Below, piece by piece: positions 5,330 through 55,072 of a stretch of DNA of 64,000 bases. How positions within the stretch are numbered: position 1 is the first letter of the stretch; every line of letters begins with the position of its first letter. The position numbers were made by a program, and so were the translations under genes. This DNA is from a virus, in the IMG/VR virus record IMGVR_UViG_3300041405_000225, positions 15,834 to 79,833 of that record; one strand, written 5' to 3'. The notes under the pieces are model-generated. The model ran no database searches. It was not told the origin of the DNA and was given only the letters and a program-made list of their open reading frames with translations.

Positions 5330-6124
5330 TCAACCCGCCAGCAGAGTGGCACGAGGGTCGCTGGCCAAGCGTTCGCGCTCTTCGTCCAGATACAACAGAC
5401 ACAGGGCCTCAAGTTCGCGGTCCATTCTGTCGCCCGGACGGGTGAGAGCTACGCGCCCCTGGCCGTCGATGCTCGGCGCCATCGCCGTCACCTGACCCGC
5501 CAGCGAGTCAAGGGGCGGGCACTTGATGACTTTGGTGGCTGAAGCCTCTTTGTAGCGCTCAAAGCCCAGCGCGTAGTTGTCCTGATACTGGTCGCGCAGC
5601 GATTCGCACTCCGGTGGCCACTGCACCTTGGCGTCTGCCCATTCCATACTGTTCGGCACGCTACGGGTAAGGCAACGGGCCAGATCGCAGCAGAACGACA
5701 ACACGCTGATCATCACCCGGGGATTGCCCAACGCGGCGGCGTACTCCACCAACCGGATGGCGTAGGCCGAAGCCATTTCGACATTCCCGTTCAACGTGCG
5801 CTCACTCAGCAGAACCGCCCGACGGCGCCCGCCAACACTACGCGGCGCGGCGATGATGAAATGGAAAGCGTGAAACCGGTAGTTGTCGCAAACGACGGCC
5901 AGAAAGTGCTCAAAGGCCTCCCCCTGCTTGATTGGACCAGCGCCAGCAAGCGCCTTGGCCACCAACGCGGGCACGTCGCTCGGCTTCAGCGAGGCGCCTG
6001 CCGGGCGGGCCTTCTTGGGGAAGTAGTCGAAGTTGCGGGTCTGGCCGATCCGTTCAACCTTGCTCAGCTGGCCCGTCGCAAAGAGGAATCCGCGGTTATC
6101 GTCGTCATGCCGGCTGCGCTTCAT
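5330..6124 (-). CDS. Hypothetical protein
   Basis: 264-aa ORF translationally coupled to the LytTR gene. Confidence 0.6.
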   Translation of the reverse strand: MKRSRHDDDNRGFLFATGQLSKVERIGQTRNFDYFPKKARPAGASLKPSDVPALVAKALAGAGPIKQGEAFEHFLAVVCDNYRFHAFHFIIAAPRSVGGRRRAVLLSERTLNGNVEMASAYAIRLVEYAAALGNPRVMISVLSFCCDLARCLTRSVPNSMEWADAKVQWPPECESLRDQYQDNYALGFERYKEASATKVIKCPPLDSLAGQVTAMAPSIDGQGRVALTRPGDRMDRELEALCLLYLDEERERLASDPRATLLAG

Positions 6125-6513
6125 GCTGCCACCGCCGGCACAAACCCGTGCTCTGCAACGTAGGCGCGATATTGCGCATAGAGGGTAGGCCGGCAGGTGC
6201 GGGACACGCCGAACTCACGTCCGCCCACCACGCAGAAATAATCAGGCTTGTTTTTTCGTAGCTCGTTGCGCGACATGACGCGATCGATCGCGCTCACACG
6301 TACCAGACTACTGCGGTGCGCCCGCGTCAAGCTGGTATCCCCGGCCTCGATCTCTTTGATTGAGTGCTTGCCGCACAGCATCCACTCAACGCCATCACGG
6401 TCCAGCGCGTGGACATACTTCTCATCAGCCCAAAAGGCCACGAATACAGACGAATCAACTTTTTCGGCACGTAGTCGGTGGTTCTTCCTGTAGCGGCGCA
6501 ATTCCATGTTCAA
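6121..6513 (-). CDS. Stand-alone LytTR DNA-binding domain protein
   Basis: FWADEKYV, SIKEIE, RAHRSSLV and GVSR motifs typical of LytTR; no receiver domain. Confidence 0.8.
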   Translation of the reverse strand: MNMELRRYRKNHRLRAEKVDSSVFVAFWADEKYVHALDRDGVEWMLCGKHSIKEIEAGDTSLTRAHRSSLVRVSAIDRVMSRNELRKNKPDYFCVVGGREFGVSRTCRPTLYAQYRAYVAEHGFVPAVAA

Positions 6514-6633: not shown

Positions 6634-8184
6634 TTATGCGACGTCGGCAAAAAGGTCGTTGGCTTTGCTCAGGGCCGCTTCAGCGCGCGAAGACTTGGCC
6701 ACCGATGTTTCCTCGGTGCAGGCCACGTAGTTCACGTCTTCCAGGAAGGCCATACAGATGGTGTCGAAGAGGTCAGGCGAGGACAGGCCGTCTGCCGCCA
6801 TGCTCTCTTTGCTGGCGATCTTGTAGCGCCCCAGCTCGTCGAACGAATACGGCAGGCGGGAGCCTTGGTCGATGAGGTCGCGTTTGTACTTGGGCGCCAG
6901 CTTGACCACGTTGTCTTTGATCGCCTCGGTGGCGTGGACAGTGCACTGGGCGCGCTGGTTGATGAATCGCTTGCGGTTTTCGTTGGAGTGCGGACGGGCA
7001 CCCCACTGCACGCCCTGGATGATCATGCTGCCCATCTGCAATTCCTCCAGGCGGCGCATGAACTGGATACCCATGGCGTTGACGTCGATCACGATGGTGA
7101 CGTTCGGGAATTGCATGGCGTAGTCGCGCAGCTTGACCGCCAGCGGTGTCCAGTCCTCGGTAGCGCTGTAGATTGGCACGTCGACCACTTCCACCTTGCG
7201 CCGACGCTCGTTGGCCATCCGGTCGCCCTTACCGCTGACTCGCAGGTGGGTGGCCACCGTCTTGTCTCGCCCTACGCCAGCCGCGACGTCAACCACGATC
7301 ACATGGCCCCACTCTTCACCTGGCAGGATCGGGCTGGACGCCGCAATGGCGCGCTCAAGCATGGCGCCACTCAGCAAGTACTTGCTCAGGTTGGTAGGGA
7401 ACATCCCCTTAACCTTGATCTGGTATTCCGCTTCGTCGGTACCGCCGTATTGCTGGCGCTTCTCCTTGATGAACTTAAGCGAAACAATCGGACTCTCTTC
7501 GGAGTTGAATACCAGGGGCACCCACGGGCCGCCGCGGTAGATCGACTGGCCATGGTGGGTTTCCCAAAAGAAGCCGGTCGATCGCGTGGGCTGACTGGCC
7601 ATGATGAAACGGTTTCGCTCATCGGTCAGAGCGCCACCGATCACACCAAAGTTTTCGTCGGGGATGCCAGACGCCTCATCCGCCAGCCATAGCAGATAGT
7701 CGCCGTGGGTACCGGCCAAGTTCTCAGGGGAGCCGCGCGGGGCGGTACGGGTGGTTACGTACCAGGTGGCGCTATTGCCAACCACGTAGACCTTTTCGGC
7801 CTGGATCACTACATAGTCAGCGATCCACGCATGCGGGCCTTTGCGGATCTCGGCGAGCATGGTGGTGATTTCTTTCCATACGCCCTCTCGCACCGTCTTG
7901 AGTTTCGGTGCGGTCACATAGGTGTTGGAATTCAGGTAGCACAGCAAGTGCCAAAGACAGATAACGCCGAAACTGCGGGTTTTACCAGTACCGTGGCCAG
8001 ACGATACCGATACCCGGCAGCCATAGACTGAGGACTCATTGAACAGGTCTTGTTGTTGCGGTGTGACTTCCATCAAGCACGCTTCAACCGCGAAGGCGTA
8101 CAGGTTGAATGCGTAACGCTCGATGAACGCGGGCCACCTCGGGTCTGCCTCTAGACGCAGACGCTTGGGTTTAGGCTTGGCCAT
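6634..8184 (-). CDS. pacB: Terminase large subunit (P1 PacB-like)
   Basis: Walker A SGHGTGKT, Walker B WLADEASG, SQPTR coupling motif, nuclease DVAAG...D...SPDLFD. Confidence 0.95.
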   Translation of the reverse strand: MAKPKPKRLRLEADPRWPAFIERYAFNLYAFAVEACLMEVTPQQQDLFNESSVYGCRVSVSSGHGTGKTRSFGVICLWHLLCYLNSNTYVTAPKLKTVREGVWKEITTMLAEIRKGPHAWIADYVVIQAEKVYVVGNSATWYVTTRTAPRGSPENLAGTHGDYLLWLADEASGIPDENFGVIGGALTDERNRFIMASQPTRSTGFFWETHHGQSIYRGGPWVPLVFNSEESPIVSLKFIKEKRQQYGGTDEAEYQIKVKGMFPTNLSKYLLSGAMLERAIAASSPILPGEEWGHVIVVDVAAGVGRDKTVATHLRVSGKGDRMANERRRKVEVVDVPIYSATEDWTPLAVKLRDYAMQFPNVTIVIDVNAMGIQFMRRLEELQMGSMIIQGVQWGARPHSNENRKRFINQRAQCTVHATEAIKDNVVKLAPKYKRDLIDQGSRLPYSFDELGRYKIASKESMAADGLSSPDLFDTICMAFLEDVNYVACTEETSVAKSSRAEAALSKANDLFADVA

Positions 8185-8235
8185 ATTATCCTTAAACACA
8201 AAGGGGCCAGTTCCCCGGCCCCTGCCACTCTACGG

Positions 8236-8952
8236 CTACGCCAATCGCACTTTTAGCGACGGTTTGCTGTGTTCCGTACCGTTCAGAACGAACGCTTTCC
8301 AGCTGCTGCCAGACGCCCAGCAGCTCAACGTTGTTTGGGTGTCGCGGAAAAAGCCTTTGAGCCGAAATCGACCGGCGTGCAGCACCATCCCGCCGTTGTT
8401 GCAGTGGGCCAGCCCCCCACGCGCTACTTCAAAGCTCACGGCAGGCATGGCCCCGGCGTCTTCCATCAACCACATGACATCACGCCCACAAAACCCGGCC
8501 ATGTTTTCGGGGGAATGCGCGCTCGCAGCAAAAAAGAGAACGCCGCACCACTGCTCCTGCTGGCGCAGCCTGATGCTTCGGATGGTGATTCGCAGGTGTT
8601 CAACCAACCACGCGTGCTCGCCCGAAATGTTCCTGACCAGCTTGCTGTACTGCTCACAGCAGCGAAGCATGTCGCCAAACGGCACGGCTACGAGGGTCTG
8701 CGCGTCGGGGCGGCACAGCAAGCGCCAGAACGCGATGGGCGCCAGCGGGCTGATCACTCCCCGCTCCATCGCATTTAGGTCTGAGGCGATCGACACGCGG
8801 CAGTCCGGCAGTTGCGCGCTTTCGAAGGCCCGCCCCAGCTGGCTATCCACCTCCATGCCGCACACCTCCCGTGCGAACGCGGCCAGGTCGTTCGCATAAC
8901 GGCGGACAAATGCAGGCCAACGTTCATCCTCTTGGATCAGGCGCGCACTCAT
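8236..8952 (-). CDS. Degenerate paralog of TerL ATPase domain (Walker A lost)
   Basis: Collinear similarity to adjacent TerL: RWPAF..RYA, CRVS, HAW, SPEN.AG, GFF..T; ATGA overlap with upstream gene. Confidence 0.85.
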   Translation of the reverse strand: MSARLIQEDERWPAFVRRYANDLAAFAREVCGMEVDSQLGRAFESAQLPDCRVSIASDLNAMERGVISPLAPIAFWRLLCRPDAQTLVAVPFGDMLRCCEQYSKLVRNISGEHAWLVEHLRITIRSIRLRQQEQWCGVLFFAASAHSPENMAGFCGRDVMWLMEDAGAMPAVSFEVARGGLAHCNNGGMVLHAGRFRLKGFFRDTQTTLSCWASGSSWKAFVLNGTEHSKPSLKVRLA

Positions 8953-9548
8953 GCAGCGCCCTCCGTGGCCAGCTGCGCCGACTCCCGCTCGTGCTCGGCA
9001 ATCAGCAACGCGGCGGCCTTCTCGATCGCGCGCAACCGGGTTTCTGCCTTCATCGGATAGTGCGGCCATGGCCAGAGGGTGGTGGCGTAGTCCGGCACCA
9101 GCACTTGGAGGACATAGCCTGCCGCCGCGCGCAGCAACTCATCATTGCGATAACGCCGATCAAGTTCAGGGTTGTAGCCCTTCACCAGCTTCTGGCGCTG
9201 ACGCTCACTGAGGATTGCGTCCTCGCTGGCGCTGGTCACAGGCATGGCCGGCCACAGCGCCAGCGGTTGCTCCCAGCCTCGGGCGGCCCGCTGTGCCCAT
9301 TGCTCGGGACTCAAGTTGGTGTGTGGCCGCGGTACCGAAATGCCCTGATCCTTGCCACGGTGCCGAGTCAGCCAGGCTGTTGGGGTTTTGGTGCCCTGCT
9401 TGGACTGCGCCAGCGATTCCCATACCTGGAACGTCTTTTGTGTGTGGGCGTTCGCGTACTCGCCCGTTTCATCGTTATAGGCCAGGTCACTGATGCCGGC
9501 GTGACGACAGGACCGCTCGAAATGCTCACGATTGAAGAACAAGGTCAT
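8949..9548 (-). CDS. Phage hypothetical protein (ERxRQ...GYxPExD...WPW...KAAALLIAE domain)
   Basis: Widespread phage domain of unknown function. Confidence 0.65.
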   Translation of the reverse strand: MTLFFNREHFERSCRHAGISDLAYNDETGEYANAHTQKTFQVWESLAQSKQGTKTPTAWLTRHRGKDQGISVPRPHTNLSPEQWAQRAARGWEQPLALWPAMPVTSASEDAILSERQRQKLVKGYNPELDRRYRNDELLRAAAGYVLQVLVPDYATTLWPWPHYPMKAETRLRAIEKAAALLIAEHERESAQLATEGAA

Positions 9549-9820
9549 GGTGCAGTGCGCTCAGTTGAGAAGTTGTATGTGCGTCCAAACAGTTCAAGCA
9601 GCCCAGTCAGTGGCGGTGGAAATTTGTGGTTAATGGCGATGCGCGGAATGTCATCGCCCGCACCGCGGACACCTTCGAAGTGCCAACGATCGGCGGGGAG
9701 CTGTGCGCGCTCGGCGTGCTCGATGTCGCCAGCCTCATTGCGCAGCCACAGGTCATCCCCCAGCTCCAGGTACACGGTCAGCGTCTCGCCGGTCAGGCGA
9801 TTGGTGATGGTTTGACTCAT
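9545..9820 (-). CDS. Hypothetical protein
   Basis: 4-nt overlaps with neighbours. Confidence 0.6.
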   Translation of the reverse strand: MSQTITNRLTGETLTVYLELGDDLWLRNEAGDIEHAERAQLPADRWHFEGVRGAGDDIPRIAINHKFPPPLTGLLELFGRTYNFSTERTAP

Positions 9821-10278
9821 GGCTTCGGCCCGGCCTTGCCGTTGATCTCGATCGGCTTGGCGAACGCCTTGGTGAATCGGAACTCTTCCATCAGCTGGCT
9901 TCCATCCGCCAGCAGGGCCTGCGCCAACGTGGCCGCCGGGACACTGCGCCCCTCGGCCACATAAGCAGCCAGACAGCGCACCAACCGCTGCGCGGCATAG
10001 GTGCCATTGAATCCAGGCAGCAGGCGAGCACGCCCAACCACCGGCGATTCCAAGTCCACAGCGCGGGCTTCAGCGAAAGGCGGGGAGAAGTAGAAGCCAC
10101 CCAAACGCTTTGGCTCCAGGCTGGCCACCAAATCACCGCGCCCAAAAGTGCGCAGGCCTGAAGCTGCCAGGGATTTGATAATCAGGTTCACGGTATCCAG
10201 CCGGTAGCGCTGGCGCTCGCTCAGCATGACGCCAGCAGGCGCCGCGGGTGGTGCGATAGATAAAGCCTGCATGTACAT
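9817..10278 (-). CDS. Hypothetical protein
   Basis: Operon context. Confidence 0.55.
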   Translation of the reverse strand: MYMQALSIAPPAAPAGVMLSERQRYRLDTVNLIIKSLAASGLRTFGRGDLVASLEPKRLGGFYFSPPFAEARAVDLESPVVGRARLLPGFNGTYAAQRLVRCLAAYVAEGRSVPAATLAQALLADGSQLMEEFRFTKAFAKPIEINGKAGPKP

Positions 10279-10281
10279 CCC

Positions 10282-10452
10282 CTAAATCTTGAGCCGCAGC
10301 TGGGCGCGGTCGCATTCGTTTTCACCGTGCGGCAGCTTGTGGGCATGTACCTCACAGTTCCGACGCTTGCAGTCACGGCAGTAGGTGTAGGCGGGGGCTT
10401 TTTTGGTCCGCCGCCAGGTGACGCGATCGCTTTCGCAAAATCGACAATCCAT
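10282..10452 (-). CDS. Small Zn-ribbon protein (56 aa, not in ORF track)
   Basis: Manual translation MDCRFCES...YCRDCKRRNC..., two CxxC; fills the gap. Confidence 0.55.
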   Translation of the reverse strand: MDCRFCESDRVTWRRTKKAPAYTYCRDCKRRNCEVHAHKLPHGENECDRAQLRLKI

Positions 10453-10469
10453 GTAGTCCGTTCCGGGTC

Positions 10470-10480
10470 TATCCCCGGAC
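10470..10480. promoter_or_regulatory. Dispersed 11-bp motif TATCCCCGGAC (also 14322, 30586, 35207; reverse at 61386; variants at 6525, 13115, 31231)
   Basis: Five exact copies, intergenic or at gene boundaries. Confidence 0.6.
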
Positions 10481-11775
10481 TACACGGGGCGTGCGTCGAT
10501 CATCGCCTGCGCGTACACCCACCGGCGATCAGCAAAGGCGGCCATGCTTTCGTCTTTTTCCTGCACCAGCGGACAGGTAAGCGCGAAGTCGTCACGCAGC
10601 TCGATCAGGAATTTGTCCAGGGGCTTGGCTGACGGGCGCGTGTCCGGGTTCGGGCACGCGCCTGGGTCTGCAACCGGGGGCGCCTTCTTCTCGACTGCAA
10701 TCGGCAGTTCAGTGCTGTGGAAGGCCAAGGAAATGGCTTCGAAGAGGTCCGCCGCTTCCGCATGCTCATGTTTCCAGTCATCTGGCTTGTCCACCCGAAA
10801 ACGCCCGGTGTCATCAACGTGATACGGCACTTTCAAACCCAAATGTTCCAGCACCGTTTCGTAGTTGGCGGGGCGCAGACTCTGCGGGATGGCCAGCTTT
10901 ACAATGCCGGACTTGATGGCTTGGGCAGCAAGCACACTGCATTCAGCGCGCCGGTTGAAAAAGCGCCCACTGGTGCCACGCTTGGCCAGTGACTGGCCCA
11001 TCATCAGGCCGTAACGGCTGACTGTCGGGCTCGCGAAGGTTTGCAGGCACTGAAGAAAAAACGCACCCATTCCCTTTGCATCCACAAGGATGGTGGCATT
11101 CGGTAGTGCTGCCGCGCGCTGGAACAGCTCAGCCGCTTGCTGCTTAATGTCGCCGCTGCCTGTGTAAAGCGGATAATCGACCACCTCAACGAAACGGCGG
11201 GACTGGGGGCCGTCGTAGACTTTCATATGGGCGACAACGGTATTACCAGGGCGCACGCCGTCGGATACGCGCACACCGAATACGTCATGCGCCTCCACTC
11301 CTTTCGGGACAGGGCTGTCGATATCGAGGGCGCGCAGAAGGTCGCCTTCATCGAGAAGGAACGCGCTCGGCGATTGCGCAGGCTTCTGGAGAATCGCCGG
11401 CACCTCTGTATTGGCCGCCGGGGCGGAATGTTGCAGCTTGCCACCAATCACGGTTTGCACTGGATTTGGCTCCTTGGTGCGCACGATCTCTTTGATGGCG
11501 CTGGCCATAGGGGACGTCAGGAAGCTATTCAGCACCCGGCGCAGGCGATAGTGGGTCTGTGCGTAGCGCGATTTGCGGCCAAAACTTTCCTGGACTGATA
11601 CGGGCTTGCAGCCTGGGATCTCGACCCAGTAATGCACTCCGCGGGCGATGTTGGCGTGGTCGGGCGCCGTGACCGCGAACCCTTGGGTGATCAGCCACTG
11701 CCTGAATGCCGACACGTTGCTGGCCAGCAACAGATCGGTGTCATGCGTTCCCTTTGCCTTGGCGGTATTGCCCAT
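10480..11775 (-). CDS. Fusion protein with degenerate TerL nuclease (RNase H-fold) domain
   Basis: VEVVDYPLY, PNATILVD, RFFNRRAEC, AIKSGIVKLA, VPY..DDTGRF and ADLFE align with TerL C-domain; first catalytic Asp replaced. Confidence 0.85.
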   Translation of the reverse strand: MGNTAKAKGTHDTDLLLASNVSAFRQWLITQGFAVTAPDHANIARGVHYWVEIPGCKPVSVQESFGRKSRYAQTHYRLRRVLNSFLTSPMASAIKEIVRTKEPNPVQTVIGGKLQHSAPAANTEVPAILQKPAQSPSAFLLDEGDLLRALDIDSPVPKGVEAHDVFGVRVSDGVRPGNTVVAHMKVYDGPQSRRFVEVVDYPLYTGSGDIKQQAAELFQRAAALPNATILVDAKGMGAFFLQCLQTFASPTVSRYGLMMGQSLAKRGTSGRFFNRRAECSVLAAQAIKSGIVKLAIPQSLRPANYETVLEHLGLKVPYHVDDTGRFRVDKPDDWKHEHAEAADLFEAISLAFHSTELPIAVEKKAPPVADPGACPNPDTRPSAKPLDKFLIELRDDFALTCPLVQEKDESMAAFADRRWVYAQAMIDARPV

Positions 11776-12065
11776 CAGTCAGCTCCTAACGTGTTGGCCA
11801 TGAACGGCCTTAGATTTTCGATTCGCCCTGGCCGGCTGGCCTTCGGGCGCACTTCAACAATGGGCTTGATCCAGAGCTGTCCGGTTTTGAACAGGAACAG
11901 CTCCCACAGCCCCAACTTCATCTTGGTCGTACCCTTCTCGTACAGGCGCCAAGACTCACGGCTCACGTAAATCAGTTCCCCGGCAGCGCTCTCACTCAGG
12001 TTCCGGTTTTTCCGGGCCTTGCGGATGTTCTGCGGGGTTGGCTGCCGATCGGCGTTAAGCGTCAT
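11775..12065 (-). CDS. XRE-like HTH protein
   Basis: PTPQNIRKARK..LSESAAGELIYVSRESWRLYEKG. Confidence 0.75.
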   Translation of the reverse strand: MTLNADRQPTPQNIRKARKNRNLSESAAGELIYVSRESWRLYEKGTTKMKLGLWELFLFKTGQLWIKPIVEVRPKASRPGRIENLRPFMANTLGAD

Positions 12066-13183
12066 GCGTCACCACCATTGTCCAAAGCGGCGATCTCGGC
12101 TTGGCGCTGGGCCATGGCTTCTCGCTGGGCATTTGTTTGTTCCAGGCCGAGGCGATACGCCTCATTAAGTCGCTCTGTGTCCACTTGGGCCGCGGGTGGC
12201 TGTGCCGGCTCGATGTTCATGTTGAAGATCCGTCCCAGCATTTCCAGATACGGGCGAGCGTCGTAAACCTTCATTTCAAGCCCGTCCTTGGTTTCTTTCA
12301 CGCCGCCGTACAGCGCCAGCGCGCCAGGTGAAAGGTGGCGGGTGTCCTTGAGCACGAGCTGGCCGATACCGTTGCCATTGCACTCAGGGCAGTCCGGGTG
12401 CGGATCCAGATTGGTGTCAAAGCCCAGTCCGCCCAGTTCGTCGAACACCGGTGGCTTGCGCTTCATATGCTTGGCTTCAGCCACCAGCTCTTGGTGCCGG
12501 GCCTTTCTCGCTTCCAGTTCACGCGGGGTCATCTGGTAGCGGAAATCCTTGCCATGGCAGCACCGACAGCACTTGTAGATGTATTCCACCAGTTCGCGGG
12601 GATCAGCCATGGCCGCGCCGTAGATCCGCTGAATCACACGCCCGGTGATTTCCTCGGTCTTGGCGAACAGCTCCGCGCGCTTGGCCAGGGTGTAGGGATG
12701 TTCCTTAACCTTCTTTAACAGGCGACTGGCTGCCGCAGCGGCTACGGCGTCGGATTTGCACTCGTAGCCCGCATCTAGATACGCCTGAGTGCCGTTTTGA
12801 GTGACCAGCCAAAGGTCGACAAACTTCGCTTGGCGGGCGTCTAAATCGTGGAGACTCCCAGCCTGCAAGGCTTCCAGCTCTTTGGTGTTCAGCTTTACGG
12901 CTTTCTTTACTCGGGTACTCCCACCGGTTTTGCGTGGCGGTTTGGTCGGTGCGGGCGCAGCTGTAGCCCCTGCCGCTGGCTTGGTCGCGGCGGGCCTCTT
13001 GGGTTTTGCTGGGGCTTTTTTCGATGCCTTTGCAGGGGCCGTTTTTAGAACGCGACCAGCCCTCACCTTAACTTCTGGCTTTTGAGGGGGTGTAAACACG
13101 GGCCGGCCAGTATCGTCCGGGGATTGTTTATCCTCGGCAGATTTGGATTGAACATCAGTACCCTCGATCTTTTTCCGTGCCAC
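12062..13183 (-). CDS. Terminase small subunit with Zn finger and K/A/P-rich N-terminus
   Basis: LDARQAKFVD..NGTQAYLDAGY..AASRLL HTH; CCRCCHG...CPECNG. Confidence 0.85.
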   Translation of the reverse strand: MARKKIEGTDVQSKSAEDKQSPDDTGRPVFTPPQKPEVKVRAGRVLKTAPAKASKKAPAKPKRPAATKPAAGATAAPAPTKPPRKTGGSTRVKKAVKLNTKELEALQAGSLHDLDARQAKFVDLWLVTQNGTQAYLDAGYECKSDAVAAAAASRLLKKVKEHPYTLAKRAELFAKTEEITGRVIQRIYGAAMADPRELVEYIYKCCRCCHGKDFRYQMTPRELEARKARHQELVAEAKHMKRKPPVFDELGGLGFDTNLDPHPDCPECNGNGIGQLVLKDTRHLSPGALALYGGVKETKDGLEMKVYDARPYLEMLGRIFNMNIEPAQPPAAQVDTERLNEAYRLGLEQTNAQREAMAQRQAEIAALDNGGDA

Positions 13184-13256: not shown

Positions 13257-13279
13257 CAAAAAAACCCGCAACCGCGGGC
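13257..13279 (-). terminator. Intrinsic terminator upstream of terS
   Basis: Minus strand CCCGCGGTTGCGGG followed by T7. Confidence 0.6.
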
Positions 13280-13530
13280 CAGAATCCTAGAAGGATCAGC
13301 CCGCCGAAACGGGCTCCCCAATGCCGTATAGGGGACGCCACGGCGGGCGCTGCAATGGTGTCGAGCCATTTCCCCAATTTTGACCGTTATCCAACATCGG
13401 CTACCTGATGAAGCCTCCCTGTCGAAAGACTTCAAAAGCTCGGGACCGTGTGGCATCCCTTACCCAGCACCTAGCGCACGACAGCCCGGCATGGCCACCC
13501 TATGCCGGGTGGCTGACTTACAAACCGGTG

Positions 13531-15661: not shown

Positions 15662-16462
15662 TCAGGCTTGCAGCTGCTGCTCGGGCGGTCTGTCCACTTG
15701 GCGGCGCAGATACACAGCGGCCAGATCCATCGGGAACAGCGAGCGCTCACCGCTCTGAATGGCTGTGTCGAGCGTCCACTGCCGTGTTTCAGTATTCATG
15801 CGATGCCAGCCTGTGTTTGGGAAATAGCCGAAGAACGACAGCACCTCAGTGGCTTCACACAACAGGAAGTGCGTGGCCATCGACTCTTCGTCCATCATTC
15901 GCTGGATCTCTTCCAAGTGGTACGAGCGCAAACCTCCCGGCAAGGCATGGCCGTTGTAAGCAATTGGTGGCTCCAGCCCCATGGATTCGCACCGCTCCAG
16001 ATGAAACGCCAGCGATCGGACAGGCCCGGCATCATCGTTCACGGCAAAGGCTGCATGCTTGAACAACCTGCGGGCGCGTGGCATGCGCTCTTCAGAGGCA
16101 GCTTCCACTGGCACCCGGGGCCGTGGCACCAACTTGGGATTGATCGTCGTCACCTGCGCCCCTGAGCCGCCCTGCAATTGATCGTCGGTGCTCGATGCAG
16201 GTCTCGGGGTGGATCTACCCGGCTTCAGCAGTTCAGGGCGCTCACGCAGCGGTAGAAAGCCTTCTTCACCAAGAATGACGCTACCAACGGCGCGCCCCAT
16301 TTCGATCTGGTCCATAACGAACTCAACAAGCGCCAGCCCGCGGGCCAACAACAGGTTCAGATTTTGGTGCCCGCAACGCTTCAGCAGCCCCTGCACGCGC
16401 ACCATGCTTTCGGGAGCCATAGAGAAAACGATTTCTTGCCGCTGTAGTGCCTGGCTGGTCAT
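15662..16462 (-). CDS. Hypothetical protein, possible N-terminal RHH
   Basis: Start MTSQALQ downstream of conserved promoter, with GAGG RBS. Confidence 0.6.
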   Translation of the reverse strand: MTSQALQRQEIVFSMAPESMVRVQGLLKRCGHQNLNLLLARGLALVEFVMDQIEMGRAVGSVILGEEGFLPLRERPELLKPGRSTPRPASSTDDQLQGGSGAQVTTINPKLVPRPRVPVEAASEERMPRARRLFKHAAFAVNDDAGPVRSLAFHLERCESMGLEPPIAYNGHALPGGLRSYHLEEIQRMMDEESMATHFLLCEATEVLSFFGYFPNTGWHRMNTETRQWTLDTAIQSGERSLFPMDLAAVYLRRQVDRPPEQQLQA

Positions 16463-54815: not shown

Positions 54816-55072
54816 CTATGCAGTGGCTTCCTCAACGACGGTGCAGTGCTCTAGGGAGACGTATCCCGATACGCCCTCAATGAAAATCACGGCTTCACAG
54901 CTCGATACGAACGCCTTGCCGTTGGTCTTACAGCGATGAGTTTCGCCACGGCCCAATATCGACTCGTAGCTCACGGTCGTGCCGTCCGGGTGCTTTTCGT
55001 TCCAGTCGAAGCACTGGGCCTTGGCCTGAGTTTCCATTTGCTTCAATGACATTTGTTTGCGCGGTGGCATGG
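54816..55072 (-). CDS. Hypothetical phage protein
   Basis: Start MPPRKQ with AGGAG RBS. Confidence 0.55.

Follow-up and report, generated by a model that had tools for sequence, protein, structure and literature searches.

Dead look-alikes of large terminase domains are kept around terL in a Pseudomonas phage-plasmid family

The terminase, one of the best-studied phage machines, is generally regarded as made of a small subunit (TerS) and a large subunit (TerL) only. In phage P1 and Xanthomonas phage Rb1, the pacA and pacB genes are directly adjacent, with nothing between them. The delta and delta′ subunits of the clamp loader are ASCE/AAA+ pseudoenzymes, that is, ATPase paralogs which lack the hydrolysis motifs and are kept for binding the active machine. 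Full-text literature searches found no description of dead TerL-domain paralogs; the nearest case is vs.8 of T4, a separate, uncharacterized phage gene for a TerL-ATPase-like domain only, which stands alongside the real terminase and keeps its Walker motifs (PMC13601566). In this study, I analyzed a stretch of 64,000 nucleotides (nt), called the window below (positions 15,834 to 79,833 of IMG/VR record IMGVR_UViG_3300041405_000225), whose source is a Pseudomonas element of about 80 kb. It was found that three genes around its terL encode catalytically dead copies of TerL domains. It is well supported that these are three separate pseudoenzyme genes, which arose when parts of the PacB-type terL of the element itself were duplicated. 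Since the motifs are lost family-wide, the open reading frames (ORFs) are intact in 19 and 27 protein clusters, and purifying selection is seen, two of the copies, an ATPase-like and a nuclease-like one, are retained fold mimics and not decay products. The reading that I favor, with a probability of roughly 0.45, is that they are non-catalytic TerL mimics which tune the element's own pacase.

Throughout, Alike denotes the ATPase-like copy, X the protein of 431 amino acids (aa), Nlike the same X with its nuclease-like domain, and p264 the third copy. TerL without further qualification is the element's own PacB-type large terminase. L-numbers (L001 to L027) denote related loci, and P-numbers (P0003, P0004, P0058, P0063, and P0068) denote proteins. 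All the genes of interest lie on the minus strand, and the principal features are as follows.

Positions 6634 to 8184, minus strand: terL, a functional PacB-type large terminase of 516 aa (phrog_2, 4.7e-33), with all catalytic motifs intact.
Positions 8236 to 8952, minus strand: Alike, a dead paralog of the TerL ATPase domain (238 aa, P0004), found by BLASTP against TerL (2e-30) and matching phrog_5902.
Positions 10480 to 11775, minus strand: X with a dead nuclease-like domain (Nlike, 431 aa, P0003), identified by BLASTP with TerL and by its model.
Positions 11494 to 11775, minus strand: N-terminal domain of X (residues 1 to 94), highly conserved and unrelated to TerL.
Positions 10708 to 11373, minus strand: TerL nuclease-like domain in the linker of X (residues 135 to 356), found by BLASTP against TerL (1e-30) and Foldseek.
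Positions 10483 to 10629, minus strand: C-terminal helical module of X (residues 383 to 431) with the motif LRDDFA...RRW.YA.
Positions 5330 to 6124, minus strand: p264, a third TerL nuclease-like protein (264 aa), found by BLASTP and hhalign against the TerL nuclease.

TerL shares 35% identity with P1 PacB across 95% of its length, and related plasmids of 81 to 95 kb, recorded as 'non-mobilizable', are present in P. fluorescens, P. putida, and P. atacamensis. On these two grounds, the element is a P1-like phage-plasmid. Family members are on record in culturable strains, P. fluorescens DR133 (CP048608) and P. putida KF715 (pKF715C), and the window stretch was matched in rhizosphere metagenome DNA runs. 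The likeliest start codon of terL is the ATG at 8184, giving 516 aa, rather than the GTG at 8199. Like the PacB-type TerLs, the window copies belong to a packaging cluster and have the same folds, and Alike and Nlike are 31% and 33% identical to the respective TerL halves. In contrast to PacB-type TerLs, they are single-domain copies that have lost the catalytic motifs and the C-terminal tail, and one of them is embedded in X. Pfam gave no match for TerL, Alike, or the small genes of the cassette between terS and terL, and PHROGs gave none for X, p264, or the stand-alone nuclease copies described below.

A preliminary description, made from the sequence alone, had aligned 8236–8952 with the ATPase half of TerL up to the domain boundary, and this was reproduced. 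Alike gives a single collinear BLASTP alignment with TerL (31% identity, E value of 2e-30; ORF 8236–9069 against ORF 6634–8199), which runs over ORF residues 45 to 273 and TerL residues 16 to 242 and stops at the boundary (...PSLK in one, ...VSLK in the other). The true start of Alike is the ATG at 8952; this gives 238 aa and a 4-nt overlap with the upstream stop codon, and the homologs are 228 to 240 aa long. Its phrog_5902 match is common to the N-terminal half of TerL. The motif changes were as first written: SGHGTGKT is replaced by SDLNAMER and WLADEA by WLMEDA, and SQPTR is lost. The Walker A motif, the DE pair of Walker B, and SQPTR are absent from all 16 Alikes and kept in all 18 TerLs (SG[HT]GTGK[TS], xxDEA, and SQPTR). 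Instead, the Alikes have WL[MV]E[DGNSA], out of register with the Walker B of TerL, and WLME is invariant among them. They retain the N-terminal D.RWPAF..RYA helices of TerL and SPENLAG. The predicted structure of Alike is poorer than that of Nlike, with a predicted local distance difference test score (pLDDT) of 63, and its best matches are the ATPase domains of the P74-26 and T4 TerLs. Compared by description, T4 vs.8 differs in that it keeps Walker A and B, both of which Alike has lost (PMC13601566).

The other assignment, that 10480–11775 carries the nuclease half of TerL between modules unrelated to it, was also borne out. Residues 137 to 352 of Nlike align by BLASTP with TerL residues 272 to 485 (33% identity, E value of 1e-30 for the 431-aa protein). 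The model has a pLDDT of about 90 over residues 135 to 356, which have the RNase H-like nuclease fold of TerL; the top Foldseek matches in the PDB are TerL nuclease domains, namely E217 (8dkr, 1e-6), followed by Sf6, G20c, and human cytomegalovirus UL89. As had been reported, VDVAAG is changed to VRVSDG. Arg169 replaces the first catalytic Asp. This first metal-binding residue (xDVxxG) is Asp in all 22 TerLs, Arg in all 18 X-borne copies, and Val or Met in all 10 stand-alone copies. The X-borne copies all have the second Asp (ILVD) and mostly the third acidic residue (ADLFE). None of the dead nuclease domains has the conserved C-terminal tail of TerL, A..[LF]F[AD].[VI]; the paralog alignments end before it. 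A comparison of net charge and isoelectric point revealed no clear difference between dead and live domains. X itself consists of an N-terminal domain (about residues 1 to 94), a disordered linker, and the C-terminal helical module, and the nuclease-like domain is an insert in the linker. In most relatives, X is only about 195 to 220 aa long and lacks the nuclease-like part, and the LRDDFA...RRW.YA motif is invariant with and without the insert. In L017, a member of the window's own clade, the N- and C-terminal modules of X are about 70% identical to those of the window and the insert is absent.

Are these genes on the way to decay? The homologs of Alike form 19 protein clusters with identities of 42 to 100%, and those of Nlike form 27 clusters with identities of 37 to 70% and lengths of 389 to 448 aa; the ORFs are intact in both sets. 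The named source organisms of the Alike and Nlike clusters are all Pseudomonas, and many clusters come from contigs of about 80 kb. For Alike, the comparison with L004 (P. azerbaijanoccidentalis SWRI74) gave a nonsynonymous rate (dN) of 0.019 and an unsaturated synonymous rate (dS) of 0.163, that is, a dN/dS of 0.11, and TerL and TerS gave 0.04 and 0.13 in the same comparison. Against L001, the dN/dS of Alike was 0.11 to 0.23. Alike is under purifying selection. For the nuclease-like domain, dN was 0.33 to 0.49 and dS was 1.1 to 3.5, near saturation in all available pairs; its dN/dS is well below 1, and it is also under purifying selection. Thus, Alike and the nuclease-like domain combine homology to TerL, family-wide catalytic loss, and purifying selection, and are pseudoenzymes. 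What a functional PacB-type TerL has, namely the P-loop, the DE pair with SQPTR, the first nuclease Asp, and both halves plus the tail in one polypeptide, is missing from them. One may regard the copies as neutral leftovers of partial terL duplications heading to decay, given that every copy is optional, that two loci have only a 54-aa tail of Alike, and that p264 is very degenerate. This is hardly credible in view of the dN/dS values well below 1, the ORFs intact across 37 to 100% identity, the family-specific invariants (WLME in Alike and Arg169 in Nlike), and the preserved translational coupling. The earlier proposal of retained fold mimics thus stands, also with respect to the predicted folds.

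The preliminary description had two dead copies, and both are present; a third, p264, lies outside the region it covered. The p264 region was picked up by tblastn of TerL against the window. BLASTP aligned p264 with TerL residues 279 to 461 (24% identity, E value of 3e-6), and hhalign of the p264 family profile against the profile of TerL and stand-alone nucleases gave a probability of 96.5% (E value of 8e-10 over 177 columns). The first two catalytic positions of p264 are not acidic, and p264 occurs in no clade other than that of the window. With the nuclease-like domain as query, an exhaustive HMMER search yielded 10 stand-alone or differently fused proteins of 211 to 424 aa, all with Val or Met in place of the first Asp. 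In L011, L022, and L027, a stand-alone dead nuclease gene directly follows terL. One stand-alone group has a C-terminal extension homologous to the small ORF after terL in L002, L007, and L009, a sign of a partial tandem duplication that took in the 3′ half of terL and the next gene. Upstream of terS in L021, a 353-aa protein (883–1941) joins a coiled-coil-like N-terminal part to a dead nuclease domain in which the Asp is replaced by Phe. In P0068, from another element, the dead copy lies between two small phage domains, phrog_9165 and phrog_27241. A small protein of the window (54840–55052, minus strand) is 47% identical to the phrog_9165-like N-terminal module of P0068. In summary, dead nuclease copies occupy at least four positions or architectures: in X, after terL (L011, L022, and L027), as p264, and upstream of terS (L021). 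In the tree, they form three well-separated groups with long branches inside the TerL clade of the Pseudomonas phage-plasmids, and P1, Rb1, and a P. psychrotolerans plasmid split off before the dead copies branch. Dead nuclease domains have thus been made between one and several times in the Pseudomonas family, always without the first metal ligand.

It may be asked whether some catalysis persists. The nuclease-like domains could nick or bind DNA as accessory endonucleases, since two of the three acidic residues are kept in the X-borne copies, and the N-terminal domain of X may be a real nuclease. In structure searches of the Atlas, the neighbors of the latter domain are small phage hypothetical proteins, with weak PD-(D/E)xK-like matches that resemble Mrr, VRR-NUC, and DUF4365-type folds. 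However, these matches have template modeling (TM) scores below or near 0.4, and no PD-(D/E)xK motif is evident in the N-terminal domain of X. Moreover, no copy of the three lineages has the first metal-binding Asp; Arg, Val, Met, or Phe stands in its place, and p264 lacks the second Asp as well. Residual or altered catalysis is therefore very unlikely.

The history of the insert differs from that of its surroundings. The DNA of the window and that of L004 are 95 to 99% identical from terS to terL, except at window positions 11509–10618, where the identity is 54 to 67%. The dS of the insert against L004 is about 1.9, that of the flanking modules of X is 0.4 to 0.6, and that of the neighboring genes is 0.10 to 0.33. 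This is an allele replacement and not local mutation. The X-borne domain is thus exchangeable, fast-evolving, and gained or lost inside another gene. Such allelic diversity, uncoupled from the backbone, fits a specificity determinant under frequency-dependent selection, and many related 80-kb elements co-circulate in rhizosphere Pseudomonas. The copies could accordingly be weapons against rivals, that is, dominant-negative mimics which poison or misdirect the terminase of co-resident phage-plasmids or satellites and spare their own. I consider this rather unlikely, because the TerLs are 62 to 99% identical across the family, which makes self/non-self discrimination difficult, and because Alike co-diverges with the backbone and is not shuffled; direct evidence for such a role is absent.

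Alike shows a quiet history. The Alikes are monophyletic in the tree with a support of 100, and their inner branching mirrors the TerL backbone, which indicates that Alike is old and vertically inherited, with a rate several-fold above that of TerL. The 4-nt overlap of the 199-aa gene and Alike is kept in every relative whose junction was checked. In L022 and L027, Alike is cut to a 54-aa ORF (7971–8132 in both loci), which is still coupled to the 199-aa gene. It was considered whether this ORF is a retained N-terminal motif of TerL; this was rejected, since it has no significant match to the TerL N-terminus. Rather, the ORF is the C-terminal tail of an L011-type Alike (E values of 1e-10 to 1e-12). 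When longer proteins related to Alike were searched for, no fused form of a dead TerL emerged, which is weak evidence.

Alike and Nlike had been interpreted as the two halves of one split second terminase. Their genes are indeed 1.5 kb apart and in reversed order relative to the TerL halves. A presence/absence matrix was made for 18 family loci. A complete Alike is found in 13, the C-terminal tail alone in 2, and no Alike in 3; only 5 have the X insert. In 8 of the 18 loci, Alike is present but the nuclease-like insert is not, and 3 loci have neither. Because the distributions differ in this way, and because Alike is inherited vertically while the insert is allele-swapped and gained or lost, a split second terminase is not supported.

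In the order of transcription, the locus contains terS, the gene for a 96-aa helix-turn-helix (HTH) protein, X, the genes for proteins of 56, 153, 91, and 199 aa, Alike, terL, the gene for a 130-aa protein, and p264. The features around the dead copies are listed below.

Positions 12062 to 13183, minus strand: terS, a PacA-like small terminase of 373 aa (Pfam Terminase_2, 4.9e-14; phrog_51, 2e-18), present in all family loci.
Positions 11775 to 12065, minus strand: 96-aa HTH protein, with a 4-nt overlap at the stop codon of terS and a 1-nt overlap at the start of X.
Positions 10282 to 10452, minus strand: 56-aa protein, conserved in all family loci.
Positions 9817 to 10278, minus strand: 153-aa protein, with no family assignment in Pfam or PHROGs.
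Positions 9545 to 9820, minus strand: 91-aa protein, with a 4-nt overlap at each side.
Positions 8949 to 9548, minus strand: 199-aa protein, with a 4-nt overlap of the ATGA type with Alike, present in every family locus, even without Alike.
Positions 8202 to 8223, minus strand: GC-rich hairpin (stem of 9 bp) with a T-rich tail behind it, in the gap that separates the stop codon of Alike from the start of terL.
Positions 6121 to 6513, minus strand: 130-aa protein between terL and p264, with weak matches to LytTR and to the regulator phrog_13895.

From terS to Alike, neighboring genes overlap by 1 to 4 nt or are separated by gaps of at most 27 nt. Since pacA and pacB of P1 and Rb1 are adjacent without it, the cassette between terS and terL is specific to the Pseudomonas family and an add-on to a working pacase. 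The 96-aa protein has weak matches to HTH_31 and to the HTH of MqsA antitoxins and is found in all family loci. At about residues 100 to 190, the 199-aa protein has a C-terminal domain that recurs at the C-termini of at least eight PHROGs, all of unknown function and of very different lengths; it is a widespread, uncharacterized phage domain that is always present in the cassette. Structure searches in the Atlas gave no usable lead for the 199-aa protein. In TerS, residues about 205 to 268 contain an invariant Cys cluster (C205, C206, C209 ... C265, C268, then G.G) in 8 of the 8 aligned family members, which suggests a zinc-binding insertion in the PacA-like small terminase. In several relatives, an intein of the Hint/homing-endonuclease type (about 240 aa) lies inside the Walker A motif of TerL (SGTG|C...HN|TGKT); the carriers are L003 (2911–5187), L008 (8757–11051), L020 (7444–9753), P0058, and P0063, and the window TerL has no intein.

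The coupling of the dead genes to their neighbors, claimed earlier, holds for Alike and the 199-aa gene with their 4-nt overlap and fails for Alike and terL, which are separated by a 51-nt gap that holds the hairpin. A hairpin is kept at this position in all clades with differing sequences. A TAnnnT hexamer (TAGAGT, TAAGGT, or TACAGT) precedes each hairpin; that of the window, TAGAGT, lies just upstream, within about 8226–8236 on the minus strand. This site may unite a terminator or attenuator with a P1-style late promoter that belongs to terL itself. A strong terminator-like hairpin at 13263–13280 on the minus strand (GGCCCGCGG...CGGGTT, then T7) precedes the start of terS by about 80 nt. Because of this second hairpin, the string of genes from terS to Alike appears to start from its own promoter within the ~80-nt gap. 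A promoter scan found zero sigma-70-like sites, and the count of terminator-like sites was at chance level.

How might dead TerL domains tune the pacase? Since the residues for the motor and for cutting are gone, they would act by binding, occupying the binding partners of TerL. This reading is favored because the genes are inside the terS operon and Alike is coupled to the universal 199-aa protein. Alike would be made from the terS operon together with that protein. Lambda-type terminases bind TerS through their N-terminal region. Because Alike keeps the N-terminal helices and SPENLAG and has neither the motor motifs nor the nuclease half, it may bind the partner of the TerL N-terminal region, either TerS/PacA or the 199-aa protein, and thereby limit or time the assembly of the pac-cleavage complex. 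A complex prediction with TerS (residues 88 to 373), the 199-aa protein, and Alike gave an interface score (ipSAE) of 0.00, which speaks neither for nor against binding. The dead nuclease domains may associate with DNA or with the nuclease domain of TerL and so restrain or steer the cutting. The C-terminal tail of TerL is likely, by analogy, to be the portal-binding element, and since the dead domains lack it, they would meet DNA or the TerL nuclease and not the portal. In X, the dead nuclease could be a docking module that brings the small domains of X to the terminase; the recurrence of the arrangement small domain–dead nuclease–small domain suggests such a module. The partner surface of the X-borne domain is probably variable, as the domain is exchangeable and fast-evolving.

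Several points weigh against this reading. Every copy is optional (Alike is absent from 3 of the 18 loci and a tail in 2, and the insert is absent from the close relative L017); hence, none is a core subunit of the pacase. The clamp-loader subunits differ in the same respect: they are obligatory and stoichiometric, while the window copies are dispensable in several relatives, and binding is only proposed for them. An allele swap of the insert between backbones that are 95 to 99% identical fits conflict genes better than housekeeping regulators. With so little variation in TerL (98.8% identity), a variable surface facing TerL is hard to explain. In addition, a hairpin stands between Alike and terL, which suggests that the ratio of the two proteins is not fixed.

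The same traits raise the question of immunity. The copies could be counter-defence mimics that bind TerL-sensing host sensors (Avs1-3, Upx, or others of Pseudomonas) and block or absorb them, which would protect a plasmid-prophage that carries terL in the cell long-term. The copies are optional, fast-evolving, and repeatedly re-invented, the allele replacement of the insert is a conflict-gene pattern, and TerL is a known immune trigger (PMC13601566). Upx-type recognition concerns the unfolded ATPase core and does not need the catalytic residues; it is independent of the catalytic aspartates, so a dead copy could still be bound (PMC13601566). In contrast, Avs3 is reported to read active-site residues and bound ATP, and EcAvs2 to recognize the ATP-bound ATPase site by way of a bridging ATP (PMC13601566). 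With no P-loop in Alike and no first metal ligand in the nuclease copies, the very features that Avs3 and EcAvs2 read are missing. A look-alike that did bind would be expected to trigger the sensors, as the ATPase-like paralog vs.8 of T4 activates EcAvs2 rather than blocking it (PMC13601566). Furthermore, the genes are inside the packaging operon and not in an early region or an anti-defence island. Counter-defence as a whole is thus unlikely, though worth keeping in view. Because the ATP-bound active site read by Avs2 and Avs3 is gone, simple titration of Avs by a decoy is weakened and less likely than modulation of the pacase.

With the modulation of the pacase as the favored reading, a broader view can be offered tentatively, and with more doubt than confidence. 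The dead single-domain copies may represent a new functional class, 'pseudo-terminases', repeatedly invented in P1-type phage-plasmids with convergent loss of the catalytic Asp. They would either be exchangeable pacase subunits with a regulatory or docking role or disarm terminase-targeting systems of hosts or rivals, and the X-borne copy would be a swappable specificity cassette. A family of Pseudomonas phage-plasmids keeps up to three dead TerL-domain look-alikes around terL, and their retention implies that TerL folds have a selectable non-catalytic job. The candidate jobs are the control of pac cleavage, the delivery of accessory domains to the motor, and phage–host or phage–phage conflict. 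Either outcome would add a new layer, in DNA packaging or in terminase-centered immunity.

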